A program made the translations under genes and the position numbers. Shown one piece after another: positions 8,307 to 51,248 of a stretch of DNA of 64,000 bases. The notes beneath the pieces are model-generated. The model ran no database searches, was not told the origin of the DNA, and saw nothing but the letters and a program-made list of their open reading frames with translations. The DNA lies in assembly GCA_963768625.1 (NCBI GenBank), contig CAVYIK010000003.1, positions 198,715 to 262,714 on the forward strand, in the 5' to 3' direction. Numbering within the stretch: position 1 is the first letter of the stretch; each line of letters begins with the position of its first letter. Source of the stretch: an uncultured bacterium (GTDB lineage Bacteria > Patescibacteriota > Minisyncoccia > UBA6257 > 2-01-FULL-56-20).

Positions 8307-8422
8307 CGAAATATTGGACAGATACCAAATAATGTGTTAAACAATATGTTCTAGATTAAATATTCATTAAATCAGTAGGAGTGCTTTAGTATACGATAAA
8401 ACCTAATATAAATCAAGGATGT

Positions 8423-8875: not shown

Positions 8876-8877
8876 CT

Positions 8878-13964: not shown

Positions 13965-13976
13965 ACTTTTAGAAAC

Positions 13977-19288: not shown

Positions 19289-19298
19289 TATATGAATC

Positions 19299-22214: not shown

Positions 22215-22276
22215 TCCTCTATGGGATATTTTGTGTTAGAATAGCATAATCATAACTGCTTTTCCAAGAAACGAAT

Positions 22277-23530: not shown

Positions 23531-23588
23531 TCGCCGGCTGCTTGACTCCGCGCTGATTTTCGTTTAAAATACCTTAATTAATCTAAAC

Positions 23589-24383: not shown

Positions 24384-24423
24384 TTTAACGAGAATTTAAG
24401 GAGTTTGCTGTTATAATGGGGGT

Positions 24424-27390: not shown

Positions 27391-27394
27391 TGTG

Positions 27395-27604
27395 ATGAAA
27401 ATGCTAAGGGCATTTTTCTTGACCCTCTCTGTCTTCGGCCTGCTTGGCTGGCTCTATATCGTCGTGAGCGCAACGTTTCACCCGTGGACGCTTCCCATGC
27501 CCCTCACACACCTGCTCCCCTATCCGCGCGAGGATACGTTCGGCGTCATCTGCTTTATCGTCTCAATGGTCTCTTTCTTTGTTTGGAACCTTATAAAAGA
27601 CTGA
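27395..27604 (+). CDS. small two-TM membrane protein
   Basis: Internal ATG at 27395 (MKMLRAFFLTLSVFGLLGWLYIV..). TACAAT lies 6 nt upstream. 69 aa. Confidence 0.4.
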   Translation: MKMLRAFFLTLSVFGLLGWLYIVVSATFHPWTLPMPLTHLLPYPREDTFGVICFIVSMVSFFVWNLIKD

Positions 27605-28079
27605 TCTTCCTTCTCCGCCGGTGCCAATATTCGTGGATGATGAGCGCCACCACCGCGATATCAAGCAGGGTGATGAACCAAAGAACGAGCGAGGGCGTGA
27701 GGGTCAATTGGTAGAACTGGTAGATGATGAAAAGCGTGAAAACGGCGGCGGAGGCCGGGTATGCCCAGAGCTTGTTGTACCAGAGCCCGGTCAGTAAAAA
27801 GATCTTTACGATGCCGTGGGAGAGGAAGACGAACGCCCAAACCGACTGCGGCGTCTGGGAAAAATCGTGCACTCCGCGGGCGACGTATCCCCAAATGAGG
27901 TCCCTCGGGCTTTCTGTGAGCTCGCCGCCGAAGAGGGCGAAGGCGATGCGATAGAGCGTGCTATAGCTGAAAAACGCAAAAAAGAGGCCGGCAACAAGTT
28001 CTCCTAAACTGATCAACGCTTTCACGATGATGCCCGCAAGGAAAAGCGAATGGTAGGTTTTTTCGGGGATGGGTCGCAT
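27591..28079 (-). CDS. DUF2127-like integral membrane protein
   Basis: 162 aa with 4 hydrophobic helices and a GELTESPRDLIW motif reminiscent of DUF2127. This is a family call from memory. Confidence 0.5.
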   Translation of the reverse strand: MRPIPEKTYHSLFLAGIIVKALISLGELVAGLFFAFFSYSTLYRIAFALFGGELTESPRDLIWGYVARGVHDFSQTPQSVWAFVFLSHGIVKIFLLTGLWYNKLWAYPASAAVFTLFIIYQFYQLTLTPSLVLWFITLLDIAVVALIIHEYWHRRRRKISLL

Positions 28080-28090
28080 GATATGGTATA

Positions 28091-28531
28091 TTGTCTACTA
28101 TCAATAGCATGAAAAGCAAGAGGGTCGGTTTCACCTGTGGGGCTTTTGATCTCGTGCATGCCGGGCATGTTTTGATGTTCAAGGAGGCGAAGCAGCACTG
28201 CGATTACCTTGTGATCGGCCTTGAAATAGACCCTTCCGTGGACCGCCCCGAAAAGCATAAGCCCGTCATGTCGCTTGAGGAACGGAAAACCATTCTTGAG
28301 GCCATCAAGTATATTGATGAGATCATTGTATACAACACCGAGGCAGGCCTTTACGAACTCCTGAAGAAATTGAAGCCCGACGTCCGGTTTCTTGGAGCGG
28401 ATTGGAAAGGGAAACCTTTCACCGGGCACGACCTACCGATCAAAGTCCATTTCAACTCCCGCGACCACTCCCATTCCAGCTCGGCGTTGCGCCGCCGCGT
28501 GCACGAAGCAGAACTGAAAAAGGCGAAGTGA
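28091..28531 (+). CDS. cytidylyl/adenylyltransferase (TagD / RfaE domain II-like nucleotidyltransferase)
   Basis: 146 aa with GAFDLVHAGHVLMF (HxGH motif) and a C-terminal SSSALRRRV (ISSTxxR-like). Confidence 0.8.
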   Translation: MSTINSMKSKRVGFTCGAFDLVHAGHVLMFKEAKQHCDYLVIGLEIDPSVDRPEKHKPVMSLEERKTILEAIKYIDEIIVYNTEAGLYELLKKLKPDVRFLGADWKGKPFTGHDLPIKVHFNSRDHSHSSSALRRRVHEAELKKAK

Positions 28532-28643
28532 ACCCTTTTCCCTCTCACGGCGTAGTACCTTGCCGCTTTTTTATCGCCATTAATAGAAAATGGCCCCGAT
28601 TTACCGGGACCATTTTCATCCACGAAACCGCCCGCCTCTGCTG

Positions 28644-29438
28644 CTAGAATCCGAAGAGGTGCTTGAAAAAACTGCCGATCGCGCCGAAGAAGTCGCCGAA
28701 GTGGGATTCTGAACGAGCCTTATTGCCGCTTCCCTGGTCAATGATGGACGAAGCGGCGACCGACGTGCCATTCACCGTGCCCTGTATGACCACATTGTCC
28801 CCCGCCGCTACACTGGAGAGCGTCGTGCTCGCTCCGTTCTCCACGATGTTGGCGCTTGAAGCGTCTATCGTGTAGGTTACGTTGCTCGCATTGGTCACGG
28901 TGAGCGTTGTGCCGCTTATCGCAGTGACACTCCCCGCGATGACCGGTTCACCGTTGCCCTGGATCGGCGGCGTGGAGGTCGCGGCGCGGCCGGAGCCGGG
29001 TCGCTTTCCCGCCGGCATCCCGCTCATCCCGCCTTTCAACCCGTCGCGGATCACGGTTGCCGCAATATTCGTCCCGCTTACCGTACCCTGCACCATCACC
29101 GTGTCGCCTACATTAATGCTCGCAACGGTTGACGTCGCGCCGTTATCAAAGACCTGCGCATTCGTCGCGTCCACCGCATAGACCGTTCCCGTCGTGCTCG
29201 TCGCGTTCGGCCTCGTCTTACTGGTCACAGTGAGCGTCGTGCCGTCCACCGCACTTACGGTCCCGAAGACGCCGGGTGCCATACCGCCCGCCATGCCGCC
29301 GCGCATCCCGTAATGGCCGCCCCCGCCCCAACCGCTCGGCGCGCTTGTCTGCGCCTGGGCGAACGCCGGAGCGAAGAACGCGAAGCTCAGCGCAAACCCT
29401 GCCGCAATCATCCACGGAATATATTCCCTTTTGTTCAT
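28644..29438 (-). CDS. secreted protein with a G/M-rich segment and two DUF5666-like beta repeats
   Basis: 264 aa with a signal peptide. Repeats are VSAVDGTTLTVTSK...GDTVMVQGTVSGTNIAA and VTAISGTTLTVTNA...GDNVVIQGTVNGTSVAA. TATAAA lies 6 nt before the ATG. Confidence 0.55.
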   Translation of the reverse strand: MNKREYIPWMIAAGFALSFAFFAPAFAQAQTSAPSGWGGGGHYGMRGGMAGGMAPGVFGTVSAVDGTTLTVTSKTRPNATSTTGTVYAVDATNAQVFDNGATSTVASINVGDTVMVQGTVSGTNIAATVIRDGLKGGMSGMPAGKRPGSGRAATSTPPIQGNGEPVIAGSVTAISGTTLTVTNASNVTYTIDASSANIVENGASTTLSSVAAGDNVVIQGTVNGTSVAASSIIDQGSGNKARSESHFGDFFGAIGSFFKHLFGF

Positions 29439-29685
29439 ATGTTTTTTATAAATTTATTTATTATTTCCGACGCGGCATGCCTGGCGTGCGTCGTAGTTTA
29501 TAGTACGTACCGGGGACGTAAAAGGTTGCACAGAAGGCGAAGTAAAGCTTCATGCCCCGTGGATCCGCCGGGATTTGCACCCGGTTCTTCATTTGTCGAA
29601 GATGATGTTCTACTTGATGAACTACGGACCCGCGATCCCGGGGCAATATCATCTTGCCTGGAACCCCATTAAAACTATCTAAAAT

Positions 29686-29713
29686 GCAAACAGCCACGAA
29701 AGTGGCTGTTTGC
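29686..29713 (-). terminator. perfect 12-bp hairpin with a GAAA tetraloop; probable terminator downstream of the VIT1 gene
   Basis: Sequence is gcaaacagccac-gaaa-gtggctgtttgc. On the minus strand it is followed by AUUUUAGAUAGUUUU. Confidence 0.45.
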
Positions 29714-29828
29714 ACGACAAATGAAGTTTTTAGTCCGCGGTTCACGCAGACCACCATCTTGCAATCATCTTAACGCCGGGAAAGCCTCGGGTCAACTATT
29801 ATTTAATAAATTTTTAATGTAGCGACGC

Positions 29829-37836: not shown

Positions 37837-37864
37837 AAAAAAACAGCCCAGTTTTCTGAGCTGT
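37837..37864 (-). terminator. intrinsic terminator of the methyltransferase gene
   Basis: Minus strand reads ACAGCUCAG-AAAA-CUGGGCUGU followed by U7, 5 nt after the stop. Confidence 0.75.
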
Positions 37865-37868
37865 TTCG

Positions 37869-38429
37869 TTACCACACGAACGGTATGAGCCGTTTGGTAC
37901 GCGCTTGATAGGCCGGATATTGCTCAGGGAAAAGATTGAGCATCGCCCGCTCCTCTTTGCCTACGCGACGCAGACAAAAGATGATGCTTATAATAAACAT
38001 CGCAACGGCCACCATGCTTCCCGTCAATGCGCTACCGAAAAGCGCGAGCATCGCACCCGCATAGATCGGATGGCGGACATATGCGTATGCGCCACTCGTT
38101 ACGAGCTTATGATCTTCCTTCGGATGTATCCCCCAGTCGCGCCCTAGGTCGTACCGTCCCCAGATCGCAAACGCGACGCCGATGACGGTTAGCAATGCGC
38201 CAACCCAACTGACCGCGAAGCCAGAATTGAAGAACGCACGTTCGAGGACAAACGCATCGCCCTGTAGATTTCGAGTGAGAGCAAAAATCAAAAGCCCCAA
38301 CAAAAAGAGTAGCAGAAGCGGAGGAAGGTTCTTTGAGCGGCTTGAAGCGTCTGGTTTGGCGGTAAATGCGCCTATCACCCATACCGCTATGAGGATCAAC
38401 CAACTTACGATTATGACGTAGCCGTACAT
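37869..38429 (-). CDS. isoprenylcysteine carboxyl / phospholipid methyltransferase (ICMT/PEMT) family membrane protein
   Basis: 186 aa with 4-5 helices and the motif GAYAYVRHPIYAGAMLALFG. Confidence 0.75.
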   Translation of the reverse strand: MYGYVIIVSWLILIAVWVIGAFTAKPDASSRSKNLPPLLLLFLLGLLIFALTRNLQGDAFVLERAFFNSGFAVSWVGALLTVIGVAFAIWGRYDLGRDWGIHPKEDHKLVTSGAYAYVRHPIYAGAMLALFGSALTGSMVAVAMFIISIIFCLRRVGKEERAMLNLFPEQYPAYQARTKRLIPFVW

Positions 38430-38522
38430 ATTTTTAGTATATAGATTAATTTTTAATGACCTTTGCCGAACTCATATCTTTATCAGCGTATACCCCACAT
38501 CGGTCGATAGCAAAGAGCCATA

Positions 38523-38543
38523 ATCGCCTCTTGCCCGCGCAAC
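38523..38543. repeat. 21-bp direct repeat, copy 1 (atcgcctcttgcccgcgcaac)
   Basis: Identical to 39001-39021. Lies just 3' of the VOC gene and is part of the hairpin ctcttg-N9-caagag. Confidence 0.8.
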
Positions 38544-38566
38544 AAGAGAGCAAAAGTCTGCAAAAA

Positions 38567-38986
38567 CTATTTTTTATCTCCCTTGAATATCCACGGGATG
38601 CCAAACCTATCGGTGAATTGTCCGTATGTTCCAAATGGCAAATCGTGAAGGTCTTGGAAATTGTCTTTATTTGCACCTTCCGAAAGTTTATCGAACACTT
38701 TCCTTAATTCGTCATAACCTTGGCCAACCAGAAATATACTCATGGTATTACCCTGTTTGGGCAAACGCATGGGTGCTGCCATCCAGTCCGTTGCCGAAAT
38801 TTCCACACCATCACTTTTTAAATTCGCGTTAATAAGCCTATTGTGCTTTTCTGGTGGGAACATATCTTTCATGGGCGTGTCGGCGAGCTTAGTCAGCGTA
38901 AGTTCTCCGCCTAGACACTTATGGTAAAAGGTCATTGCCTCAGCACAATTTCCATCAAATAACAAAAATGGGGTAACTTTGATCAT
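38567..38986 (-). CDS. VOC superfamily protein (PhnB/YjdN-like, glyoxalase fold)
   Basis: 139 aa reading MIKVTPFLLFDGNCAEAMTFYHKCLGGEL...FGTYGQFTDRFGIPWIF. Confidence 0.75.
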   Translation of the reverse strand: MIKVTPFLLFDGNCAEAMTFYHKCLGGELTLTKLADTPMKDMFPPEKHNRLINANLKSDGVEISATDWMAAPMRLPKQGNTMSIFLVGQGYDELRKVFDKLSEGANKDNFQDLHDLPFGTYGQFTDRFGIPWIFKGDKK

Positions 38987-39000
38987 AAGATTATTTTATC

Positions 39001-39021
39001 ATCGCCTCTTGCCCGCGCAAC
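39001..39021. repeat. 21-bp direct repeat, copy 2
   Basis: Identical to 38523-38543. Lies 15 nt 5' of the VOC start. It is followed by ctggggacgtag, which is also found next to the rpsI relic at 37693-37704. Confidence 0.8.
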
Positions 39022-39132
39022 GGGCGGCTGGGGACGTAGAAGCCCAAGAAAATATTGATGATATATTCATTTATTGCGTTGATCTTTTTTTTATTTAATC
39101 GACTTTGAGGATAAGAAAAACAACTAGGCTCA

Positions 39133-39297
39133 TTACTGCTTCAAGAACCTGAAGTAGAACGCTACGAATATAAGGACTATTCCTATATTCGATGCCAGCC
39201 GTTCCCAGAACAGGTTTCTGAAGAACAGGATATCCACGGTGACTATGATGGCTACCATCGGTACGATGAAGATTGCTGCAACGTATGAGGAATTCAT
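39133..39297 (-). CDS. possible small membrane protein (54 aa)
   Basis: My own translation gives MNSSYVAAIFIVPMVAIIVTVDILFFRNLFWERLASNIGIVLIFVAFYFRFLKQ. It is below the ORF-track cutoff. Confidence 0.3.
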   Translation of the reverse strand: MNSSYVAAIFIVPMVAIIVTVDILFFRNLFWERLASNIGIVLIFVAFYFRFLKQ

Positions 39298-39331
39298 AAT
39301 AAGGGTTGATTCGTTTCTTGATAATTATATG

Positions 39332-39589
39332 TCACGTCGTGGCATTCGTCCCGCCGTCTTCGTTCCGCGCAGTCGCCGATCTGATTCTGCTGATAAGCTC
39401 TTCGGTTGAAGTATCGGGATCATGCTCTACGTTCAGATCCTCGGCGATGGATTCCAGTTTTGCAAGCGCCTCGGGACTGCCATCGGTTGCGAGGGATTGA
39501 AGATACGTGAAATCAGGCTGGCCGTGCTCGTTAAGCCAGTCTTCTTTTTCTTCAATTTCTCCTTGGTTGTAGCTGCCATTTTCGGTCAT
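39332..39589 (-). CDS. small acidic hypothetical protein
   Basis: 85-aa ORF whose start overlaps the upstream stop (ATGA at 39586-39589). Confidence 0.4.
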   Translation of the reverse strand: MTENGSYNQGEIEEKEDWLNEHGQPDFTYLQSLATDGSPEALAKLESIAEDLNVEHDPDTSTEELISRIRSATARNEDGGTNATT

Positions 39590-39855
39590 GAGCTGAACAT
39601 GGTAACCCCTCCCTTATTCGACTGGGCGAAATCTCGCGGAACGTCGAATTTCCTCTGCTGCCCATCGCTGCACTTGATCTCGAAGCTATACATATCCGTT
39701 TCAAAATGCAGCGGCATCGCGGAAATGATCTCGATCGTCCTGTCTCCATCCGAACTCGTGAATCGATCTGCATATTCGGCCGTCACAAAGAACGCGAGGC
39801 TGCTTTGCCTGATGAAGATGTCTCCGCCCGGGAGCGTCGCTACGGTGTATTCCAT
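39586..39855 (-). CDS. small hypothetical protein
   Basis: 89-aa ORF, translationally coupled to 39332-39589. Confidence 0.4.
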   Translation of the reverse strand: MEYTVATLPGGDIFIRQSSLAFFVTAEYADRFTSSDGDRTIEIISAMPLHFETDMYSFEIKCSDGQQRKFDVPRDFAQSNKGGVTMFSS

Positions 39856-39863
39856 AGTCTTGA

Positions 39864-40121
39864 CTATGATTTCTTACTGAACAGCTCCGACCACTTCAGC
39901 TTGGCTACCGCGAAAAGATATATGATTTCAAGAATGCCAAGGGTATTCACGACAAGCAGTATCACAAACCACCATGGCTGCCCCCGCCGCCCGGAATGCC
40001 ACAGTGCGAGACCTTTCCAGAAGACGCTCCAGAGTATGAGCAGAACCAAGATAGGGCCGAATGCGTGAATCCACGTCGGTGCTCCGTAGCTCATGCCGTA
40101 ATTTGAATAAAAGGTATTCAT
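39864..40121 (-). CDS. DUF5652-like small membrane protein
   Basis: 85 aa with two helices and ..WKGLALWHSGRRGQPWWFVILLVVNTLGILEIIYL... This is a family call from memory. Confidence 0.5.
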   Translation of the reverse strand: MNTFYSNYGMSYGAPTWIHAFGPILVLLILWSVFWKGLALWHSGRRGQPWWFVILLVVNTLGILEIIYLFAVAKLKWSELFSKKS

Positions 40122-40313
40122 GTCGTCTTGTTTTCGTCGAGCTTCGCGGCGGCCTCAGGAGTGGAAACGGTCTTGCTCATCGTGAGCATGCTCGTAATGC
40201 CCAATGTCCGTTATAACGAATAAATCGCAAAACACGATGTCGGTGCAGGTGCATCGCGGATTGACCAAGCTCAGAGCGTTGTCGCTTGCTGAGGCCAAAT
40301 AAGCTAGATCATA

Positions 40314-40475
40314 TCATGAGCGCAACTGGTTGCTCTGCCAGCCCCTTACCCTTTCGTGCCCTGTGGCGACATATCCCGCCCAGTTCGAAGAAACACCAAC
40401 GCTCGCGGCTGCTGCCGTCTGAAAGCTTAAAAATAATGGAAAAATAAGGACTGCAAGAACGAGTTTCCTCTTCAT
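40314..40475 (-). pseudogene. N-terminal remnant of a secreted G1 (peptidase A4)-like protein
   Basis: My own translation gives MKRKLVLAVLIFPLFLSFQTAAAASVGVSSNWAGYVATG.. (signal peptide plus SNWAGY motif). It terminates after 53 aa and no continuation was found in any frame. Confidence 0.3.
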
Positions 40476-40521
40476 ACCTATATAATACGCTAGAAAGAAC
40501 CATAATGGTTCGTTAGAGATT

Positions 40522-41298
40522 TTATATCACGACCTTCGGATACATCCACGCGCTGATCATTGAGATGCCGAGCGCGACGACCGCGAGAATGAGGATATCG
40601 AGCCCAACACCAGCGGTCGTGCCAGTGAGCATGAGCGAGCGGAGCCCGTCCACCATATAGCTCAGCGGATTCACCTCCGCCACCACCTGCAGCCACGTGG
40701 GCATAATCGCGATCGGGTAGATCGCGTTCGAGGCGAAGAAGAGCGGCAGTGTGATGACCTGCCCAATGCCCATAAACCGCTCGCGCGTCTTTACAATGGA
40801 AGCAATGATCATCGAGATACCGGTAAATACCGCCGCGCCGAGCAGGACGATGACGATCACACCGAGAAAGGTCACGATTGAAAGATGCAACGATACGCCG
40901 AGGATAAGGGCGAAGATAAAGACGATGATCGCCTGGCAAAGGCCGCGGAGACCTGCTGAGAGCATTTTGCCCCACACGAGCGCAAGGCGTGGCGTCGGCG
41001 TCACGAGCAACTTCTGCAGAATGCCCGTATCGCGATCCATAATGATATAGAGACCGTAGAAGATGGCCACGAAAACGACCGATTGCGTAAGGATACCCGG
41101 GGTAATGAATTGCAGATACGTGAACCCGCCCGTCGGAATCGCCCGCACCTTGCTGAGCGCTTCGCCGAAAATGCCGAGCCATAAAATCGGTTGTACTGCA
41201 CGCGAGATGAGCTCGGTCGGATCGTGCATAAGCTTCCGCGCCTCCATTTCCGTCAGCACCCAGGATTTTGTGATAGTTTCGTAAAGATAATGGAACAT
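40522..41298 (-). CDS. ABC-2 type transporter permease
   Basis: Six hydrophobic helices. Start taken at MFHYLYETI (41298), just after the ATPase stop. An alternative upstream ATG exists at 41346. Confidence 0.75.
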   Translation of the reverse strand: MFHYLYETITKSWVLTEMEARKLMHDPTELISRAVQPILWLGIFGEALSKVRAIPTGGFTYLQFITPGILTQSVVFVAIFYGLYIIMDRDTGILQKLLVTPTPRLALVWGKMLSAGLRGLCQAIIVFIFALILGVSLHLSIVTFLGVIVIVLLGAAVFTGISMIIASIVKTRERFMGIGQVITLPLFFASNAIYPIAIMPTWLQVVAEVNPLSYMVDGLRSLMLTGTTAGVGLDILILAVVALGISMISAWMYPKVVI

Positions 41299-41302
41299 GT
41301 TT

Positions 41303-42118
41303 TTATCCAAGTCGTTTTTCGGTTTGACGCATACGGCGGATATCACGGAAATTGCCTACATCGCTCATCTTATTCCCCGAGAAGAAGATGAATGCGTCTT
41401 CGAGGGTGGCATTCGGTTTGCCGGTCTTCTCTTTTAATTCCGGCACCGTGCCGATAATAGCAATTTTTCCCTGATTCATGATGGCGACGCGATCGCTCAC
41501 GCCATCGGCCTCTTCCATATTGTGCGTGGAAAAGAATATCGTCGTGCCCATTTTCTTACGCAGGTCAGCAAGATGACCCCATACGCTTTGCTGGGCGATC
41601 GGGTCAAGACCCGTTGTCGGCTCATCCAAGAACAGCACCTTCGGGCGATGCAACATCGCCTGCCCGATCTCCATCTTGCGGATCATGCCGCCGGAAAAAG
41701 TGCGAACAAGCGATTTTGCATGAGCTTCAAGATTCAGAAATGCGAGCGTCTCCGCGATGCGTGGGGCTCGCTCTGCGCGCGGAATGTCGTAGAGTCGGGC
41801 AAAAAGCATCAGATTCTCATACGCCGTCAGCGTTCCGTCCACTGAGATCGACTGCGGTACATAGCCAATCACATTCCGCACTTCTGCGGCGTGATGCACA
41901 ATATCATACCCGTCGATCGTCGCATCCCCGCTCGTGGACTTGAGCAATGTAATGAGCATCTTTATGAGTGTGCTCTTCCCCGCCCCATTCGGGCCAAGGC
42001 ATGCAAAAATCTCTCCAGTATCAACGCTAAAAGAAATATCATCTACCGCTGCGAAATCCTTAAATTTCTTTACAAGCTTATTTACTTCGATTATTTTTGA
42101 TGATCCAGTGGATTCCAT
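41303..42118 (-). CDS. ABC transporter ATP-binding protein (DrrA-like)
   Basis: 271 aa with GPNGAGKST (Walker A), FSGGMIRKMEIG (signature) and LFLDEPTTGLD (Walker B). Confidence 0.85.
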   Translation of the reverse strand: MESTGSSKIIEVNKLVKKFKDFAAVDDISFSVDTGEIFACLGPNGAGKSTLIKMLITLLKSTSGDATIDGYDIVHHAAEVRNVIGYVPQSISVDGTLTAYENLMLFARLYDIPRAERAPRIAETLAFLNLEAHAKSLVRTFSGGMIRKMEIGQAMLHRPKVLFLDEPTTGLDPIAQQSVWGHLADLRKKMGTTIFFSTHNMEEADGVSDRVAIMNQGKIAIIGTVPELKEKTGKPNATLEDAFIFFSGNKMSDVGNFRDIRRMRQTEKRLG

Positions 42119-42126
42119 ATATTTGG

Positions 42127-42699
42127 TTACAGGCCGCCAATGATCTCTTCCGTTTTTCTTACGAGCCCGATACGCGGGAATGTTTTGGCGACCGTGAATG
42201 CGTGCTCTTCTGCCGACATCGCTGCCATGGCGTCCTCGGCAAAGATCTGATGATATCCGTATTCATATGCAAAGCGTGCGGTGCTTTCGACGCCGATATT
42301 GGTTGAAATGCCGCAGAGTACCATCGTGGTAATGCCGCGACGGCGAAACTCCAAATCGAGTTCTGTGCCGTAGAACGCGCCCCACTGATGCTTGGTGATC
42401 ACAAAATCTCCGGGCTTCGGTCCCATCTCCGGAACGAGCTCGGCCCAGTCCGGCGCGGGAGTTTGCGACCATGGTGCGGCGTCGGTGATAGGATGCAGCG
42501 CATCCTTCCCATCCGGCGATGGCGTAACGCGCACCAAGAATACCGGCATGCCATTTGCACGGAATGCGTCCGCGAGCGCCGCAGCGTTCTTTATCACCGT
42601 TGCCGAATTGTATGGAGCAACCTGCCGTCCCGCGATTCCTTTCTGGAGATCGATGACGACCAATGCGGTTTTTGATTTGTCGATGGAGGGTGTATTCAT
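42127..42699 (-). CDS. isochorismatase / cysteine hydrolase family protein
   Basis: 190 aa with TALVVIDLQKG and ..VLCGISTNIGVESTAR (catalytic Cys region). Confidence 0.8.
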   Translation of the reverse strand: MNTPSIDKSKTALVVIDLQKGIAGRQVAPYNSATVIKNAAALADAFRANGMPVFLVRVTPSPDGKDALHPITDAAPWSQTPAPDWAELVPEMGPKPGDFVITKHQWGAFYGTELDLEFRRRGITTMVLCGISTNIGVESTARFAYEYGYHQIFAEDAMAAMSAEEHAFTVAKTFPRIGLVRKTEEIIGGL

Positions 42700-42842
42700 T
42701 CCTGCTATTATATCATTTTTTTACCCCTATCCCAAAAAGCCATTTGCGGATGATAGTCCCTACCCTAATAGGTCTTTCTAAAATCACTAGATGTCCCGAG
42801 ATAAAGATGAAGAAAAAAAATAAGTGACCGTAAATCCCCTCG

Positions 42843-43001
42843 TCATAGGATATCCGCAAGCTCAACTGCATCATCTTCGTCCAACCCCTCTTCGATAAGC
42901 TCCTGAACTTTTTCCGCCGTGTCCTCATCGATGTCGTGATTTTCCATGAGTTGGGCGATATCCTCGTCTGGCTTGTCCTCATTCTCGGGCTGATCTTCCA
43001 T
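42843..43001 (-). CDS. possible small acidic protein (52 aa)
   Basis: My own translation gives MEDQPENEDKPDEDIAQLMENHDIDEDTAEKVQELIEEGLDEDDAVELADIL. It is below the ORF-track cutoff. Confidence 0.3.
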   Translation of the reverse strand: MEDQPENEDKPDEDIAQLMENHDIDEDTAEKVQELIEEGLDEDDAVELADIL

Positions 43002-43004
43002 GCC

Positions 43005-43819
43005 TTAATTTATAAGCTTGATTTGATCGGATGAAAGCTCGTAGATTTTATATATCTCCGCATCAATCTGATCCTCGACTACGGCTATCTGATTTTTTAT
43101 TTCAGCATACTCCTCCCGCTCGAGTATGGCATTCAACCGGTGAAGTTCGACATTCAGCTTCATGGCTTCATCGACGAGTGCGATGATTTCTTGCTCCACT
43201 TTTTTATCCGCGGTCGTTTTAACTGGAAAATTCATCAGCGGCTCTTTATCTATTTGCAGGTTATCGCCCTGAACCTTCCCGCGATTTTTGAACCAGAAGT
43301 ATGCGACTTTGGAATTCAATAGCGCGGTCAGATATTTGGGATTGATGTTTTTCGGCTTGATTGCATAAAACGATTGGGAGACGTAGCAGGGGAAATCGAC
43401 ATATGAAAATGCTGGCCTCGCCGTCTTACGTAGTGACAAGACGACTCCGCCATCGAAAAACTTCTGATCGCGAGCGCGGTGTAGGCCGTAGGGAGCGAAA
43501 TCGGAGGTCATTACCGGCCCGAATTTATCGAAGTGCGACTTGATTGCCGGATACGAATCGATCTTTTTTGTGTTGGCTGAATCCATATAAAGAATCCACT
43601 TCTTGTTTTTCCTGTCGGCATAAAACCTGCTGATTTCAGTGGATTCGTAATAGGGCCGTGCAACCTGCCTCTCCCGAATTTCTCCACGCTCTTCTTTAAC
43701 TCCTCAGCCTGCTTCTCGCTCATCTTGCGAGGGTTCTCCGCGTTCGGAACAAGGTCGTTTACCTTCCGTTGTTCGGTGTGCCAGGATAATTTGTTTGTTT
43801 TTTCTTTTGTTGCATTCAT
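43005..43819 (-). pseudogene. remnant of a restriction-modification gene: ParB-like N-terminus joined out of frame to a TaqI_C/Eco57I-like specificity domain, methylase core missing
   Basis: The N-terminus (MNATKEKTNKLSWHTEQRKVNDLVPNAENPRKMSEKQAEELKKSVEKFG) is ParB-nuclease-like. The C-terminal ORF (..YPAIKSHFDKF..FSYVDFPCYVSQSFYAIKPK.INPKYLTALLNSKVAYFWFKN..) matches type IIG/BREX-methylase C-termini. The two parts are in different frames. Confidence 0.5.
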
Positions 43820-44101
43820 GATAAAAAATCGACATCTGTGATGATGCCGATTCGATACCAGAGTGCGACGCTTCTCCAAACGACGCATTCCGGTAGCGAA
43901 CAGGGATCGCCACGGGAATATGTATTTGGAGAAGTGTAAGCTCGTTCGAACTTATTACCCTAATTATATTTTATTTTTCGAATAAAATCAAGAGGTATTT
44001 TCAGTAAATGTGTCAATCAATAAAGAAAAACTGACCCTGTGTTGTTCACTATGAGGCAGAGCGGTGAATTTACTTTATTGAATTTTTCTTTTTTGCTCGC
44101 T

Positions 44102-44136
44102 AAAAAAAGAATGACCCGTTTTGTTGGCCATTCTTT
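44102..44136 (-). terminator. intrinsic terminator of the ribosomal-protein operon
   Basis: Minus strand reads AAGAAUGGCC-loop-GGGUCAUUCUU followed by U5-7, about 40 nt after the rpsI stop. Confidence 0.7.
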
Positions 44137-44176
44137 TAATCGATAAATCGTTTCTGACGCTGTGCGTGCGAAATTT

Positions 44177-44755
44177 TTACCTTTTCGCCCACTGGGGAGC
44201 CCTGCGCGCTTTCTTGAGGCCGTACTTCTTGCGTTCCACCATGCGGGAGTCGCGGGTCATGTAGCCCATGGCGCGGAGGCGCGGCTTCCAGGCGGCGTCC
44301 ACGAGGACGATCGCGCGGGAAAGGCCGTGGCGGATGGCTTCGGCTTGGGCATTGATGCCGCCGCCCGAGACGTGCACCGATCACATCAAAGTTCTTCAAC
44401 TGGAGCTCGTGAAGGGGCGCCAGGGCGGCCGCGACGAGGCGCGGGAGCGTGAAATAGCTCTTGGGATCTTTTCCGTTCACCGTGGATTTTCCTGACCCCG
44501 CCATAATGCGCACGCGCGCGACGGCGGTCTTCCGGCGGCCGGTGGCTTCGGTATAGCGAGCGGCTTTGGCCGCAGGATGGGCGGCGGCTGCGTGAGGCGC
44601 TGCCGCGTGCGGCTGTTGCGGAATGGCTCGGAGCCGCATGGGGAGCATGAGAAACGGCGGGCGACACGTGGACGGCCTCTGAGGCCGCACGCGGGGCGCG
44701 TGGTGGCCCTTGCGGCGTGCTTTACTGGTTCTTTGGGGGTTGGGGTTATGGCCAT
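44177..44755 (-). pseudogene. rpsI: 30S ribosomal protein S9 with an A/P/H-rich N-terminal extension; frame broken at least 3 times as assembled
   Basis: Fragments are MAITPTPKEPVKHAARA.. / ..YTEATGRRKTAVARVRIMAGSGKSTVNGKD..LKNFDVI / [21 protein letters not shown]...[12 protein letters not shown]. One break is an extra base near 44377. Confidence 0.8.
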
Positions 44756-44759
44756 GGCG

Positions 44760-45109
44760 TTATTCGGCATCCACAAAAATCAAATTTTTGAGCCGCTTCT
44801 GGTTCAAGAAATTCTTGGGGAGCATCTTGCGGACGGCCTGGCGCAGAACCGACTTCGGATCCTTCGCGAATTTCTGATTGAAGGTCAGCTCCTTGAGGTG
44901 TCCTACGTAGCCCGTGTGGTGGTAATAGATCTTTTCCGTTCGCGTTTGTTGCCGGTCACGGCGATGTCCTTGTAATTCTTTACGTACACTTTGTCATCGC
45001 TCACGCGGTTCTGCGCGTACGTTGCACTCTTTTTCCCTTGGAGGATGATTGCGATGTCGGAGGCCACGCGCCCCAATATTTTGTTTTTTGCGTCAATGTG
45101 ATGGTCCAT
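44760..45109 (-). pseudogene. rplM: 50S ribosomal protein L13; one frameshift near 44930
   Basis: The N-terminus reads MDHHIDAKNKILGRVASDIAIILQGKKSATY... The C-terminus in another frame reads ..YYHHTGYVGHLKELTFNQ..PKNFLNQKRLKNLIFVDAE*. Confidence 0.8.
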
Positions 45110-45117
45110 GAAAATAA

Positions 45118-45471
45118 TTAGACAAATTCTATGCGCGCAAGGCGGGTGCCGTCCCGTTTGCGGCTCTTCGCAAGCTTCGTGATGCGGAGATAGCCGCCGT
45201 TCCGTTCCGCGTAGCGCGGACCAAGCTCGTGGAAGAGTTTCTCCATGATCTTCTCGTTGTGTACGCGGCTCAAGATAATGCGGCGGGCGGCAAGCGTCTG
45301 TTTTTTAGCAAACGTAACAAGACGCTCCACCTGCGGGCGGATCGCCTTCGCGCGGGTCTCGGTCGTCTCTATCTTCCCCGCGCGGATCAGGTCGTTCGAC
45401 AAATTCCGCATAAAAGAAATGCGGTCGCCGCGCAACCTGCCGAATTTTTTGCCTTTTTTGCCGTGTCGCAT
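45118..45471 (-). CDS. rplQ: 50S ribosomal protein L17 (intact)
   Basis: 117 aa reading MRHGKKGKKFGRLRGDRISFMRNLSNDLIRAGKIETTETRAKAIRP... Confidence 0.9.
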   Translation of the reverse strand: MRHGKKGKKFGRLRGDRISFMRNLSNDLIRAGKIETTETRAKAIRPQVERLVTFAKKQTLAARRIILSRVHNEKIMEKLFHELGPRYAERNGGYLRITKLAKSRKRDGTRLARIEFV

Positions 45472-45498
45472 GGTTTGTGTCTTTGTTCGCGCCCGGAG

Positions 45499-46285
45499 CT
45501 ATTCCGCCGCTTTCTTGGTCTTTGTGGCCCTCTTCTCCTTCGGAGCGTGTGCCGGTTTCTCCGCCTTCGGTGCTTCAAATTCCTTCACTTCAACGGCGCC
45601 CACCTTCTCAAAGTGGTCCTTCAAAATATTCGCAGCTTTGTGAAGTGCCGAGCGAGGGGCTGATCGTCCCGTCGGTCGCGATCTCAATGCGCAGGCGGTT
45701 GTAGTCCGTCCGGTCGCCTACGCGCATATCCTCCACGGTGTAGTTCACGCGCTGGACGGGCGTGAAGATCGCGTCAATCGCGATCGTGCCGATCGCAAGG
45801 CGCCCTTCCGATTTCCTGCGCCTCCACCGGCACATAGCCCAATCCGCGCTCCACCTTCACTTCTATATCAAGCTCGGCGTCTTTCGCCGTGAGGGTCGCA
45901 AGAACCTCTTCGGGATTCATGAGCTCCACGTTCGTATTGAGCTCAATGTCCCCTGCCGTGACCACGTGTTCGCCTTTCATCTTGAGCGCGAGCACCTGCG
46001 GCTCGTCCACGTGCAGGCGGAAACGGAGCTTCTTGAAGTTGAGGCAAGCTCCACGATGTCCTCTTTGAGGCCCGGCAGCGTGGAGAACTCGTGCGGAACG
46101 TTCTTTATCTTAATCTCCGTCGACTGCGGCGCCCGGAAGCGAAGACAAAAGCGCCCGGCGGATGGCGTTCCCGATGGTCAGCCCGTATCCGCGCGAAAAG
46201 CCCTTCCACCTCAAAGACGCCGTTCTTCGCGTCCTCGGAGACTGTTTTGATTGAGACTGGTTGAGCTTAAGTATGCGTATTCCAT
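45499..46285 (-). pseudogene. rpoA: RNA polymerase alpha subunit (NTD plus a short Lys-rich tail, no recognisable alpha-CTD); at least 5 frameshifts
   Basis: Pieces across frames are ..IKTVSEDAKNGVFEVEG / GYGLTIGNAIRRALLSSLPGAA / ..PQVLALKMKGEHVVTAGDIELNTNVELMNPEEV.. / ..AIDAIFTPVQRVNYTVEDMRVGDRTDYNRLRIEIATDGTISP / ..ALHKAANILKDHFEKV..KKAAE*. Confidence 0.8.
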
Positions 46286-46290
46286 TGTTT

Positions 46291-46913
46291 TTATTTAGAG
46301 AATGATTCGATCAAACGATTTATTTCGAAGGGGGACATCGCGGCGCCGTCGGCGGCGAGAGCACCGTGCCTTCCATTTTCTCCGGATGGAGCGAGAGCCA
46401 TGCGGGCGGATCGTATTTCTTGAAGGAGCTCGTGCCGTTTCGTAAGCGCCCCTTTCTTTTCGGAGCCGATCGCGAACGCCGATCGACGTCGCCTTTCCGG
46501 ATCATGATATCCCGGCGAGTGCACCTTCTTCTTATTGACCACGATATGGCCATGGAGATGAGCTGCCGCGCCGCGCCGCGCGTGGGGGCGAACCCCAGCC
46601 GGTAGACCGCGTTGTCCAGGCGGCGTTCCAAGAATTCTAGCATCTTCGCGCCCGAAGCGCCTTTCGCGGCGACCGCCATGTCGAAAAGCCGTTTCATCTC
46701 TCGCTCGTCAACGCCGTAGCTCAATTTGAACTTCCGTTTTTCGCGGATCTGGAGGCCGAACTCCGAAAGCGTCCGCGGGCGCGAACGCGGGCCGTGTACG
46801 CCCGGGCGGTACGGTTTCCGCATCATCGCCGATTTCGGCGAAATCGCGCGGTCGCCCTTCAAGCCAAGTCGCTCGCCCAATGCCCGTTCTTTTTTTTCTT
46901 TAGGTCCCATCAT
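46291..46913 (-). pseudogene. rpsD: 30S ribosomal protein S4; at least 4 frameshifts
   Basis: MMGPKEKKERALGERLGLKGDRA...FLERRLDNAVYRLGFAPTRGAARQLIS, then HGHIVVNKKKVHSPGY, IRKGDV, PPAWLSLHPEKMEGTV and ..FEINRLIESFSK* alternate between two frames. Confidence 0.8.
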
Positions 46914-46937
46914 GGAAATAGTTGGTGGTGGTAATTG

Positions 46938-47438
46938 TTATACGCGGCGGGTCTTTGGCGGGCGCGGACCGTTGTGCGCGAACCGGCGTGGCATCTTTGA
47001 TGGAAAGAATATTGAAGCCGTGGTTGATGAGCGAGCGGATCGCCGAGTCGCGGCCGGAGCCGATCCCCTTCACGATCACTGCAGAATCCTGCGGGCCGGT
47101 GGTTTGGATCTTCTCCGCGATCGCCGCGATCACTTTTGAGGAGGCGAAGGGCGTCGCTTTCTTCGGGCCGGAAAAACCGAGCGAACCAGCCGATGCCCAC
47201 GCAAGCACGTTGCCCGTAAGGTCAGTCACCGTGATCGTCGTGTTGTTATAGGAAGCGTTTACGTATACCTTCCCCTCGGCCACTTTTTTGGAAGGGCGCT
47301 TCGGGGCGTGCGCTGCGGCCGTGGCTGGCAGCCGGCAGCGGCAGGCTGGCGGGCTTGCCCGATGCCTTGGGTGCGGCTTTTGCCACGCCTTCTCCTCGGC
47401 CGCGGTGTCCCCTAATGTAGTTACTTTTTCTTTCCCAT
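46938..47438 (-). pseudogene. rpsK: 30S ribosomal protein S11 with an N-terminal extension; at least 2 frameshifts
   Basis: MGKKK.. / ..KVYVNASYNNTTITVTDLTGNVLAWASAGSLGFSGPKKATPFA...SIKDATPV. Removing one G near 46988 restores PHNGPRPPKTRRV*. Confidence 0.8.
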
Positions 47439-47455
47439 GGTGTTTGTTACTTGGG

Positions 47456-47842
47456 TTATTTCAGTTCAACTTTTCTCTTACCGCTGCCGGCCGTCTTTCT
47501 TACGTTCCCGCGGACCGTGCGGGAGTTCGTGCGCGTGCGCTGGCCGCGGACGGGCAGGCGCCGCAGATGCCGCATGCCGCGGTAGGTCTGCAGTTCCTTC
47601 AATCGGCCGATGTTCGCCTTGATACGCTGGCGCAGTTCGCCTTCCACCGGAAAATTCTTCTCAATGAAGTTCTGGATGCGCAAGCGCTTCGTCCGCCGTG
47701 AGGTCCTTCGCGCGCTTATTCGGGATCCACCTTTGCCGCCGCAAGCGTCTTCGTACTTAAAGACCGCCCCACGCCATAGAGGTACGTGAGCGAAGATTTC
47801 TATCCTTTTGTTGTCGGGGAGATTGACCCCTAAAATACGCAT
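47456..47842 (-). pseudogene. rpsM: 30S ribosomal protein S13; two compensating frameshifts (about 47690-47800)
   Basis: MRILGVNLPDNKRIEI.. and ..FPVEGELRQRIKANIGRLKELQTYRGMRHLRRLPVRGQRTRTNSRT.. are S13-like. The roughly 35 aa between them read out of frame. Confidence 0.8.
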
Positions 47843-47850
47843 GATGATTT

Positions 47851-47965
47851 TTTATCCTTGCCGTTGTTTATGTTTTGGATTTTTGCACAAAATATAAATT
47901 CTGCCATGCCGTTTGACGACCTGGCATTTTGCGCACATCTTTTTTACTGAACTTCTTACTTTCAT
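47851..47965 (-). pseudogene. rpmJ: 50S ribosomal protein L36; 1-nt insertion in an A-run
   Basis: [28 protein letters not shown], then the frame is lost. Reading the six-A run (plus-strand T-run 47879-47884) as five restores NPKHKQRQG*. Confidence 0.8.
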
Positions 47966-47982
47966 AGATTTTCCGCTGCGCG

Positions 47983-48189
47983 CTAGAGCCGCCGCACGAT
48001 CCGTCCCCGCGTGCCGTCCGGAGAAAGCTCAAGGAGCACCCGGTCACCCGGCAGAACGCGAATGTTGTGCATCTTCATTTTGCCGGCGAGGTGCGAAAGC
48101 AAGGGGCCTCCCGTCCGCTCAATTGGACCCGGAAGAGAAGGCCCGGCAAGGCCTCAAGGACCCGTCCTTCCTATCGTGCCTTCCATCAT
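47983..48189 (-). pseudogene. infA: translation initiation factor IF-1; 2 frameshifts
   Basis: Fragments are MMEGTI / [19 protein letters not shown] / ..[36 protein letters not shown]. Confidence 0.75.
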
Positions 48190-48236
48190 TAGCAAAAAAA
48201 AACCGAGCTAAAGCTCATAGTCGAAGCAACGGAACG

Positions 48237-48265
48237 ATTATAGCTGATAATGCATATTCTGTCAA
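48237..48265 (-). promoter_or_regulatory. consensus sigma70 promoter of the infA-rpsI operon
   Basis: Minus strand reads TTGACA-N17-TATAAT (both hexamers perfect), about 45 nt upstream of infA. Confidence 0.7.
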
Positions 48266-48270
48266 ATGCC

Positions 48271-50010
48271 CTAGTTCGCAGAAACCGAGATCTTACCTGT
48301 GTTCGAGGGGATGCTCCAAAGCCACATCGGCCATGCGGAGATCTTGCCGTCGGCGAGACCGGGGATGGCGGCGATGGCGCTCCGGGCGTCGTTCAGGCTT
48401 TTCCCGGCGATGCTCGCCTTGAAGGTATCTGCGTCGAATTTCGGCTCAAGCGTCCCCGTGCCCGAGAGCGAGAAGCTGACAGTCCCCTTCGTGAAATCTG
48501 CTTTGACATTACTGTAATTTAACGCAAGGTTGCTGAAAGTGGAGCTCGCCGACTTGCATTCACTTCCTGTGACTGCGCGAGCGAGAGCAGATAGGCCTTG
48601 AATGCCGATTCGTCGAATCCGATCGCCTGGAGGAGGCCTCCCCGAAGACACTGAAGTTGCCGTTCGCGTCGGTGGACGTGTTCACCGTGAGCTTCGTGAC
48701 CTGGACGCTCGTCGCGCCGTCCAGGATTTTGAAATTATTCGGATAGCTCGACGTAAGGTCGCTCCGCGAGATCGACTTAAGCGCGGAGGTCATCGCATTC
48801 TTTGCGCTCGTGATGTCGGCTCGCGGTCGGCACCGCTTTGTTCCCCACAAAACCGCCGCTCGTCCCGCTCTTCAGCTCGCCGTAGAACGCGGCGTATTTC
48901 GGAGAGCCCTGGAATCCCGGGATGGTAAGCTTGGCCACCGGGCCCTACGTTATAGGACGTCCCCGGCTGGTCCGCCATGACCGTCGTATCAACCGAGGAC
49001 GGCACGATCTGGCCGTTCGTGATCGTGCGCCCCCGGCACCGTGACCGCACTTACAAGGCGGAACAGTTTCCCGTCAGGCGTCACGAACCGCGTGGTCGCG
49101 ACAAGGTCCTGCTTCGCCGAGCTGTAGGCGTTATAGATGGTGAGCGTCCCCTGCGCTTTTATGGAAACGTTCGCGTTTCCCGACGCCGGGAATAGCTGGG
49201 TGGTGTTCTTCTGCGTTGAAAAGATCTGCGCCGGGATAACATTCGTCGTCGGCATTGATCGCTGAAACCGATTTGTCGGCGACGAAATTATCCTGATAGG
49301 TCCATGGTGTTTTTTGGAAATTGATCGCGATCGTCACGTGGCCGAATCCCCATGTCATAACGCCGAGGACAACAAGGATGAGCACGACGATGCCCACAAT
49401 CCACCCGATGAGCTTGCGCGGCATGCGGCGTGACGTCTCTTCCTCTTCTTCCTCTCGCCCTGTCCCCGCCATGATCTCCGGGATGCTCCGCCTCTTGAAA
49501 AACCGCTCCCCTTCTTCTTCAAAAGCGTGTGTTTCCATTGCCGCCGTTTCCTTCCCGGCGCCCTCCTTCCTCTTCCGGCGTTCTCTTCTTTGGGTTCTTC
49601 TGTTTCTTCCGATCTCCTCCGGTTCCTCGCGCACGGTGAGCTTCACCGGCTCTGCGGTCGCTTTCTTCTTGCCGCGGCGCGCTGGCTTTTTCTCCGCCTC
49701 GCGTTCCTCGCTGCCAACGGGAACGATATCCGTGAGGCCGCCCGCAGCGCGCACGCCGCCCCAGAGCGGATGACTGCCTTCAAGACCGCTCTGCTTCGCA
49801 AAAGCGAGGATCGTATCATCCACGGATTCAATGGCCAAGGACTTTCCAGCTGCTTCTGCCTCGCGCTTTAATAGATTGAAAGTTCTTCGCTGAACGCGCA
49901 AGGACGGAACCCTTCGGAATAACGAGCGTTATTTCGTTCTCGGCTTCTTCTGTTACCTTGTCAACGACATCCGCGATCCCCTCGTCCTTCTCGATGGTTA
50001 TTTTTGTCAT
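48271..50010 (-). pseudogene. TM-anchored conserved hypothetical protein (possibly baseplate-J-like C-terminal region); at least 5 frameshifts
   Basis: MTKITIEKDEGIADVVDKVTEEAENEITLVIPKGS.. continues through five or more ORF fragments (49131-49901, 48989-49255, 48790-49050, 48560-48850, 48271-48651). There is a charged E/K/R region followed by a TM helix. Confidence 0.5.
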
Positions 50011-50090
50011 GTTCCTGCGATTATAGAAAGTATAGCATATTACAGGCGCGCCGGACGGCAGTTTGGACGGCGGTTTTGCTTCGTGAAATC

Positions 50091-51248
50091 TTATCCCGCG
50101 AGCCAGTGGAGCCGGCGGCGCAATTTTTGGTTGATCTCCGAATTGCTCTTGTCGAAATAGGCCTCAATAAAGTAAAGCAGCGGACGGAAAACGTCATTTT
50201 TTTCCTCGCCAAACCCGCCGAGGTTCGCCGTAAAGCCGAACTCGGCGAGCATCTCCTGCGCGGGGTGCTCCTCAAGCACCGCAGCCCCGTGTTTGTGCGG
50301 CAAAGCGAACGGCAACGCGTGCGGCAAGTCAACGTAGACAATCCCCTTCACCTTGGCCTTTTCTAATTCTCCGAAGAACGCTGCAAGCGCCGGTTCCACC
50401 GTTTTCTTGAACGCCCGCTCCGCCGCAGCCGACATCTTCCCGTGATGGTAAAGGCAATAGAGTTGCTGTGCCGTATGCTTGCCGACCGCAAGCGCCTTCG
50501 CGATCTCCTCCGCGAACGACGAGAATCGCCAGCCGAGCCGCTCGCGATAGAGCACTGCATGTTCGCCCTTCGGCTTCTCAAGCACGTAGAGGGAAGCTCC
50601 TTCGTCATTGGCCATGATCAGATTGAGCGGCAGCTTGCGGATGCGCGAGAGCGCGGAAAGATGCGCCTGCGGGGCCTCGGCAAAAAAGAAATCTTCCGGT
50701 GCGTTGAAAAACGGCTTTAGGTCCTCGAAGATCGCCCGCGTCGTGAACACAAGTTCAAGGAGCAGCGAGATCTTTTTCCCTCCCATGCCTACCGGCGAGT
50801 GCGCGAGCGCTTTGCCGTCCACGGCGAAATGCTTTGCTTTCGCGCCGACGAGGATAGCATCCAAGTCGCTCACGTGCAACCGCTTCGCTGCCTCGCTCCG
50901 GCAGCCATTGAAGATCTTCGCCATCTCCTGCGCGATCAAGTTTTCAAGCTCCGCGAGTGCGATCTTATTCTTCGCGTTCGCGTGCTCCCGCGAGATCGTG
51001 ATCGGCACGGGGATGGTGGTCGCGAGTGACGAATCCGCCGCCGCGATCACGCGCCGGCGCGAACGGAAAAGCGGTTTCCCTTCCCAGCGCCGCTCCGCTA
51101 TCTTGCGTCCCGGGGATTGCAAAAACTTCGCGAGGTTCGCACCCTTCGTTAATTTTTCAAAAACGATATTGCGGTCTTCGTCAACGTTCAAAAAAAGCCC
51201 GTTCGTGCCTTTCGGCGTGATCTCCAGTATCAAAAACTTTTCCTTCAC
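50091..51248 (-). CDS. hypothetical protein (385 aa, intact)
   Basis: Long ORF with coding-like composition. No family was confidently recognised, though an actin-fold FtsA/PilM-like protein is possible. Confidence 0.5.
   Translation of the reverse strand: MKEKFLILEITPKGTNGLFLNVDEDRNIVFEKLTKGANLAKFLQSPGRKIAERRWEGKPLFRSRRRVIAAADSSLATTIPVPITISREHANAKNKIALAELENLIAQEMAKIFNGCRSEAAKRLHVSDLDAILVGAKAKHFAVDGKALAHSPVGMGGKKISLLLELVFTTRAIFEDLKPFFNAPEDFFFAEAPQAHLSALSRIRKLPLNLIMANDEGASLYVLEKPKGEHAVLYRERLGWRFSSFAEEIAKALAVGKHTAQQLYCLYHHGKMSAAAERAFKKTVEPALAAFFGELEKAKVKGIVYVDLPHALPFALPHKHGAAVLEEHPAQEMLAEFGFTANLGGFGEEKNDVFRPLLYFIEAYFDKSNSEINQKLRRRLHWLAG

Follow-up and report, generated by a model that had tools for sequence, protein, structure and literature searches.

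The ribosomal-protein operon and its frameshifts

The window analysed here is a 64-kb stretch of contig CAVYIK010000003.1, a 588-kb contig of a Paceibacterota/Minisyncoccia metagenome-assembled genome, and all positions given below are those of the window. Its minus strand carries, between 44.2 and 53 kb, alaS, a gene of 380 amino acids (aa), a hypothetical gene of ~577 aa and the operon infA-rpmJ-rpsM-rpsK-rpsD-rpoA-rplQ-rplM-rpsI. A listing of the open reading frames (ORFs) and a three-frame translation showed the ribosomal genes to be spread across all three frames. A preliminary description of the DNA had reported at least about 25 breaks in this operon, and this was borne out: ~34 frame-breaking insertions or deletions (indels) were counted in eight genes between 44382 and 49897 (zone A), together with three intergenic indels, approximately one per 150-160 bp.

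The indels were called with our own frameshift-aware protein-to-DNA dynamic-programming aligner, with which the proteins of a relative (L004) were aligned to the window, and the calls were later refined with DNA alignments and a closer reference. The identical procedure, applied as a control to the same ten genes of five relatives, gave 0-2 calls; the swarm in the window is thus far above the noise of the method. Independent sequence was taken from Logan, a k-mer assembly of public sequencing runs, from which five contigs (L050, L051, L055, L056 and L059), all of run ERR11594402, were used. The deposited contig may have been built from another run, which limits the reading of the comparison as one of the same reads.

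The locus is syntenic with intact operons of related Paceibacterota/Minisyncoccia (Patescibacteria) genomes, which were found by scanning species-representative genomes with the intact L17 protein. The L17 identity to these relatives is 85-87% and the DNA identity 70-80%. Each operon gene of L004 is one intact ORF. No relative with an amino-acid identity above 90% was found in the L17 scans of genome and metagenome contig collections.

Along the minus strand, the first affected gene encodes the conserved hypothetical membrane protein of ~577 aa (48271-50010; intact homologues in relatives, 547-612 aa), and it contains seven frameshifts, at ~49882, 49241-49258, 49025, 48946, 48821, 48633 and 48564-48568. 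Two frameshifts, +1 near 48172 and -1 near 48103, are present in infA (initiation factor IF-1; 47983-48195, start codon uncertain), and three single-base insertions, at 47795, 47725 and 47684, in rpsM (S13; 47456-47842). The five indels in rpsK (S11; 46938-47439) were placed against the intact 168-aa S11 of L051 and include -1 events at 47430 (a run of six A reduced to five), 47387, 47347 and 47331, and a +1 event at 46982. The rpsD gene (S4; 46291-46913) has seven indels, -1 at 46556 and +1 at 46506, 46485, 46471, 46421, 46340 and 46334, counted as six events, as two neighbouring +1 insertions are joined in the protein-to-DNA alignment. A short form of rpoA (~260 aa; 45499-46285) has six, +1 at 46260, 46193, 46123, 45819 and 45655 and -1 at 46044; its frame-corrected product is 94% identical to an intact RpoA (P0039) from run ERR11594402. 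The rplM gene (L13; 44760-45109) is interrupted by one +2 insertion at 44936-44937, and rpsI (S9; 44177-44746) by three single-base insertions at 44704, 44610 and 44382.

Nine genes had been described as broken, and eight of these were confirmed (rpsI, rplM, rpoA, rpsD, rpsK, rpsM, infA and the hypothetical gene). The ninth, rpmJ (L36; 47852-47965, minus strand), contains no frameshift and is 92% identical to the L36 of L004; its 37-codon ORF reads through unrepaired, and the proposed reading of a six-A run as five is not needed. The rplQ gene (L17; 45118-45471, minus strand) is intact inside the zone, as had been stated, although it differs by 14 single-nucleotide polymorphisms (SNPs) from the read-derived haplotype, and its exact protein is not present in Logan. 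The flanking genes were likewise confirmed as intact for alaS and the 380-aa gene (50091-51233). Two repairs suggested earlier, near 44377 and near 46988, proved right to within a few bases, the extra bases lying at 44382 and 46982, respectively. The end of rpsI, previously placed at 44136, was corrected to the stop codon at 44177.

Upstream of infA, two conserved genes replace the usual secY-adk-map in this lineage (48271-51233 of the window; loci L001-L004 and L018) and lie directly downstream of alaS. Neither protein has a significant Pfam match; one is of 380 aa and the other of ~550-610 aa. The sequence of the latter contains a charged low-complexity linker and one hydrophobic stretch, which is probably membrane-spanning.

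Comparison with an independent assembly

Outside the damaged segments, the deposited contig and the independent assembly of ERR11594402 were identical wherever they could be compared. The lower flank of zone A is covered by L059 (37013-41167) and L050 (41152-42921), both at 100% identity and together spanning 37013-42921. Contig L056 matches the window at 100% over 11,170 nucleotides (nt) without gaps (21548-32717). The upper flank is covered by L055 (53544-49898, minus strand), which takes in alaS, the 380-aa gene and 113 nt at the start of the hypothetical gene, 3,647 nt in all, without a mismatch or gap. The flanks compared amount to ~20.7 kb with 0 differences, versus 119 mismatches and 32 indel columns in 3.7 kb of the zone.

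Inside zone A, the Logan haplotype is 96-98.5% identical to the window and its SNPs are biased toward synonymous changes. The deposited contig departs from the read-derived assembly from 44382 to 49897 (minus-strand genes), with ~37 indels and 2-4% mostly synonymous SNPs. The upper edge of this segment is set by L055, which first departs from the window by a SNP at 49897, with the window's first extra base following at 49882; the last indel, at 44382, marks the other edge. Where the Logan contigs reach a zone edge, they stop there or begin to differ from the window.

Contig L055 continues past 49898 into the zone, where three synonymous SNPs were observed (49897, 49728 and 49683). The extra C of the window at 49882, the first frameshift of the zone, is absent from L055, in which the 128 N-terminal residues of the hypothetical protein are read in one intact frame and equal those of the corrected translation. 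A second contig, L051, was reached through the best RpoA match (94%) and spans 47662-44228 at 96% identity to the window. Its rpsK, rpsD, rpoA, rplQ and rplM genes are intact, and its rpsI carries one 1-nt deletion. The 116 mismatches between L051 and the window comprise 75 transitions and 41 transversions, and 76 of the 112 in-gene mismatches (68%) are at codon position 3. This bias toward transitions and third positions indicates natural divergence under purifying selection and not sequencing error.

Database content follows a similar division. The exact proteins of the damaged zones, including the intact L17 and a Fur-like gene beside the second cluster described below, were present in NCBI/ENA only. 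Most of the flank proteins were present in Logan as well as in NCBI/ENA, and the broken fragments were not found in Logan. Intact proteins of 99-100% identity were not found for the corrected RpoA, the hypothetical protein or the YibE/F protein of the second cluster, the best matches being 94%, 84% and 83% identical, respectively (for RpoA and the hypothetical protein, among 5.8 billion sequences searched); an intact version of exactly this haplotype was thus not recovered.

A second cluster of frameshifts

The frameshifts had been described as confined to about 5.9 kb, which was not the case. When frames were tracked by the Viterbi algorithm in a three-periodic Markov model, the frame hopping of zone A was retrieved and 33.0-34.8 kb was flagged as well. 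Four more frameshifts were located there, at 33.59-34.43 kb (zone B, 33592-34428), in a YibE/F gene (~33.02-34.17 kb, plus strand) and a PAP2-like gene (34172-34820, minus strand). The YibE/F gene contains a -1 event at 33596 and +1 events at 33750 and 34022, and the PAP2-like gene a +1 event at 34428. These indels were measured against a 96.7% identical JGI contig from another metagenome (L063), which carries an intact 215-aa PAP2-like gene and part of YibE/F, and against proteins P0306 and P0161.

The YibE/F gene is read through four frame segments. The merged protein gives a full-length match to PF07907 (2-241 of 241, 226 bits), whereas the raw ORF matches with only 126 bits and in two pieces. 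Zone B shows the same +1-biased pattern as zone A, and L056, which serves as the control up to this edge, stops at 32717, just ahead of it. No further frameshift clusters were identified elsewhere in the window, the low-G+C island included, by frame-tracking Markov models and ORF reading. Profiling of the longest open frame was also tried and dropped, being too blunt at the G+C content of the window.

Character of the damage

After frame correction, no in-frame stop codons were present in ~1,900 codons. The corrected proteins are 81-87% identical to those of L004, and the intact L17 is 85% identical. Private substitutions, defined as changes in a single genome at alignment columns where the rest of the six genomes agree, were counted at 63 of 1,610 columns in the broken genes of the window versus 22 of 1,094 in its intact genes; the corresponding counts in broken versus intact genes were 47 versus 24 for L004 and 127 versus 71 for L001. 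The excess in the window is at most small, and part of it falls at frameshift junctions. Insertions outnumber deletions by ~3:1. Homopolymer ambiguity was found for 7 of 20 indels, about a third and no more than under random placement, in agreement with the earlier remark that the indels extend beyond homopolymers. Real bacterial decay is rich in substitutions, and its indels are biased toward deletion. The damage in zone A is the opposite of this pattern.

Mass pseudogenisation in reductive genomes, such as that of Mycobacterium leprae or of recent endosymbionts, interrupts many neighbouring genes by frameshifts. An operon of real pseudogenes, either decaying in a minority strain or mis-joined here as a degenerate second copy, is nevertheless most improbable at this locus. 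Such an origin would agree with the sequence being a distinct natural haplotype whose SNPs relative to the intact one are synonymous-biased, and with the failure to find an identical intact RpoA or hypothetical protein in the database. However, the marks of reductive decay (stop codons, an excess of non-synonymous change, a deletion bias and the sparing of essential translation genes) are all missing: despite ~34 indels, stop codons are absent and amino-acid change is not clearly raised, insertions dominate, and eight essential genes would have been lost at once. Furthermore, an unrelated pair of genes at a distance of 10 kb is damaged in the same way. At 49897 the sequence passes smoothly from an identical to a SNP-bearing homologue with no structural junction, and the locus is the single syntenic orthologous one. 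Its orthologous, syntenic position and the substitution pattern of functional genes do not support the decaying second operon copy that the preliminary description had held in reserve.

Recoding by programmed ribosomal frameshifting, transcriptional slippage or RNA editing was raised only because the corrected frames are perfectly conserved; nothing specific speaks for it, and its likelihood is negligible. The ~34 sites have neither a common slippery heptamer nor a long homopolymer, no relative has any of the shifts, nor does the same-run haplotype, and shifts also occur in intergenic DNA. Transcriptional slippage is a known rescue of frameshifted essential genes in the endosymbionts Buchnera and Blochmannia, where long poly(A) or poly(T) tracts are needed. 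Here, in contrast, one of ~37 sites is an A-run (47430).

Tandem alleles at the indel sites

With the read-supported haplotype as the reference, the indels could be placed to the base. Of the 16 single-base insertions in coding sequence, 13 adjoin a third codon position and add a base that could replace the reference base there without changing the amino acid. When insertions are placed at random in these genes, 46% show this configuration (p = 0.0045; n = 16, a modest sample). The window thus reads AACT where the alleles are AAT and AAC, TATC for TAT and TAC, and GTCG for GTG and GTC; further examples are CGCG for CGC and CGG, GCCA for GCC and GCA, and GTGA for GTA and GTG. The three other insertions match amino-acid variants carried by L004 (Lys, Ala and Val). 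The +2 insertion in rplM is consistent with a pair of adjacent bases that differ between the alleles and were kept in tandem, CAA and a putative CGG allele appearing as CGGAA. At least three of six deletions (47331, 46556 and 46044) have a SNP within two bases. We infer this tandem-allele signature from our own alignments, and no published description of it was found.

Origin of the frameshifts

The frameshifts are very likely errors of the deposited consensus, that is, an artefact of assembly or polishing at strain-heterogeneous segments, and features of no living genome. The sampled population would hold at least two haplotypes that are identical across most of the region; within two segments, 44.4-49.9 kb and ~33-35 kb, they would differ by ~2-4%, largely through synonymous changes. 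The assembler would have collapsed or poorly resolved both haplotypes in these segments. Consensus calling or polishing may then often have emitted both alleles of a SNP in succession, producing a +1 insertion, and less often neither allele, producing a -1 deletion. A ribosomal-protein operon that can be read only by frame hopping would be the outcome. Local consensus error or collapsed strain variation had already been proposed for this DNA, and the proposal is supported by the indel-only damage, the exact flanks with a differing zone between them, the absence of the 49882 base from L055 and the tandem alleles.

Nanopore consensus indels produce frameshifted gene calls (PMC9262707). A probable source of the contig is a Nanopore-only pipeline of Flye plus Medaka like that of the Microflora Danica long-read study (PMC12313526). 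We infer this noisy-long-read origin from three observations: the closest complete relatives are MFD bins, related ENA assemblies have Flye-style contig names, and L051 has one indel. The step at which the errors were introduced is likewise only a presumed one.

Several points weigh against this explanation. Neither the literature nor the supplements to the Microflora Danica long-read paper were found to mention ERR11594402, so the platform and pipeline are presumed ones. The case is built on assembled sequences and not on per-base read support. Contig L051 represents the other haplotype (96%), and 49882 is the only site for which a contig runs on unbroken from an identical flank; the comparison is therefore no strict proof that reads of the window haplotype lack the indels. 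The Logan assembly is also not free of error, as the 1-nt rpsI deletion in L051 shows. Logan also lacks two long proteins of the flanks (411 and 595 aa), which makes absence from Logan weak evidence by itself. An earlier tandem-allele test against the distant L004 reference did not reach significance (13 of 20 versus 47.5%, p = 0.09); this test is underpowered, and significance is reached only with the same-run haplotype as the reference. Finally, the rpsI indels at 44704, 44610 and 44382 lie where the haplotypes are nearly identical, so that a visible SNP does not accompany each error, and for this reason some of the errors may be plain low-coverage errors.

Extended to the whole zone, the same thought gives a plain low-coverage or unpolished long-read consensus, in which a few noisy reads of a minor strain left random errors that were not removed and no alleles were mixed. 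Consensus quality is known to drop below ~40-fold coverage (PMC9262707), and the recovery of none of the window's zone haplotype in Logan would fit a low abundance. In addition to the three indels in rpsI where the haplotypes hardly differ, some classic homopolymer errors are present, such as six A reduced to five at 47430 and CCC reduced to CC at 46556. This alternative is unlikely, as random read error would not predict that 13 of 16 insertions are synonymous and at the third position (p = 0.0045). The ~3:1 ratio of insertions to deletions and the homopolymer ambiguity of only 7 of 20 indels, no more than under random placement, also speak against it, and there was no sign of accompanying substitution errors.

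A further alternative, systematic Nanopore base-calling errors at methylated motifs (GATC, Dam-like), is suggested by the insertions themselves: among 23 single-base insertions, 5-6 generate a GATC or lie right against one (e.g., C followed by GATC, or [G]ATC) versus ~3% expected (post hoc p ~3e-4). Fragments of a DNA methyltransferase adjoin the zone, and the 14-mer GAACGGAAAAGATC is common to the indel sites at 44474 and 44937. Two additional G break the frame of the window at 44937; the window stays in frame at 44474, where it is L051 (position 3179) that is one G short and has a broken rpsI. The repetition of this 14-mer hints at a context-specific calling problem. However, the motif was chosen after the data were seen, most GATC sites inside the zone are clean, and none of those in the Logan-covered flank stretches has an error. 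The association may largely be a by-product of GAY and GTC/ATC allele pairs kept in tandem. Since GATC is as common in the clean flanks (6.4 per kb) as in the zone (7.2 per kb), methylation is retained as a minor rival only, and a distinctly remote one.

Other features of the window

A low-G+C island (35-47% versus 53-60% around it) occupies 8400-24400 and is rich in glycosyltransferases of families GT2 and GT4; it also encodes proteins resembling a polysaccharide flippase and a GH5 cellulase, and is probably a variable cluster for surface polysaccharides. The junction on its right-hand side was confirmed by L056 (100%, 21548-32717).

The segment at 37670-40360 contains ~2.5 kb that encode an ICMT/PEMT-like methyltransferase of 186 aa along with a number of small ORFs. 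Seeming switches of frame at 39.3-40.1 kb were rejected as frameshifts, the sequence there consisting of three separate small genes. The ~2.5-kb segment recurs at 99.7-100% identity in other runs and assemblies (L057, L058 and L060-L062). The copies in L057 and L058 have different neighbours, which suggests a mobile or recombining block.

Synteny with the relatives breaks right after rpsI. The adjoining DNA (42700-44130) has a lower G+C content and contains gene remnants, among them a 193-aa ORF (43005-43586) that corresponds to the C-terminal TaqI_C specificity fragment of a ~952-aa adenine-specific DNA methyltransferase. No Logan contig was recovered for 42922-44227.

Relation to known errors and significance

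The damage resembles the frameshift errors of long-read assemblies that are detected by the IDEEL test (PMC9262707), in which consensus indels split genes into pseudogene-like pieces, the damage consists of indels only, and independent data repair it. It differs from the classic Nanopore case, which is genome-wide and centred on homopolymers: here there are two short clusters of mostly non-homopolymer insertions beside ~20 kb of perfect flanks. It also resembles metaFlye-type polishing errors under strain heterogeneity, where co-occurring strains of ~95-97% identity yield a consensus of ~Q22-25. The myloasm preprint reports a Qscore below 25 for such a case, and ~37 indels in 5.5 kb of zone A correspond to ~Q22. 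The likeness is one of error pattern, the assembler and polisher of this contig being presumed ones. Such local errors, next to long stretches of perfect sequence, would escape genome-wide quality scores.

A physically real frameshifted haplotype, whether a minority lineage or a degenerate copy, would have received its ~34 indels from an unknown insertion-prone process that targets wobble positions, and is scarcely credible. If it were real, these indels would lie in the lineage's only ribosomal-protein/rpoA operon, and the lineage would be either freshly dead or rescued by recoding.

The finding is thus no biological discovery, and its value is one of quality control, the segment being worth flagging for re-polishing. 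A +1 insertion at a wobble position, where the two neighbouring bases are synonymous alternatives, is suggested as a flag for collapsed-strain segments. In this public, near-complete genome of the candidate phyla radiation, the genes of the two short stretches will be annotated as pseudogenes or fragments; among them are eight universal markers on which phylogeny and estimates of completeness draw.

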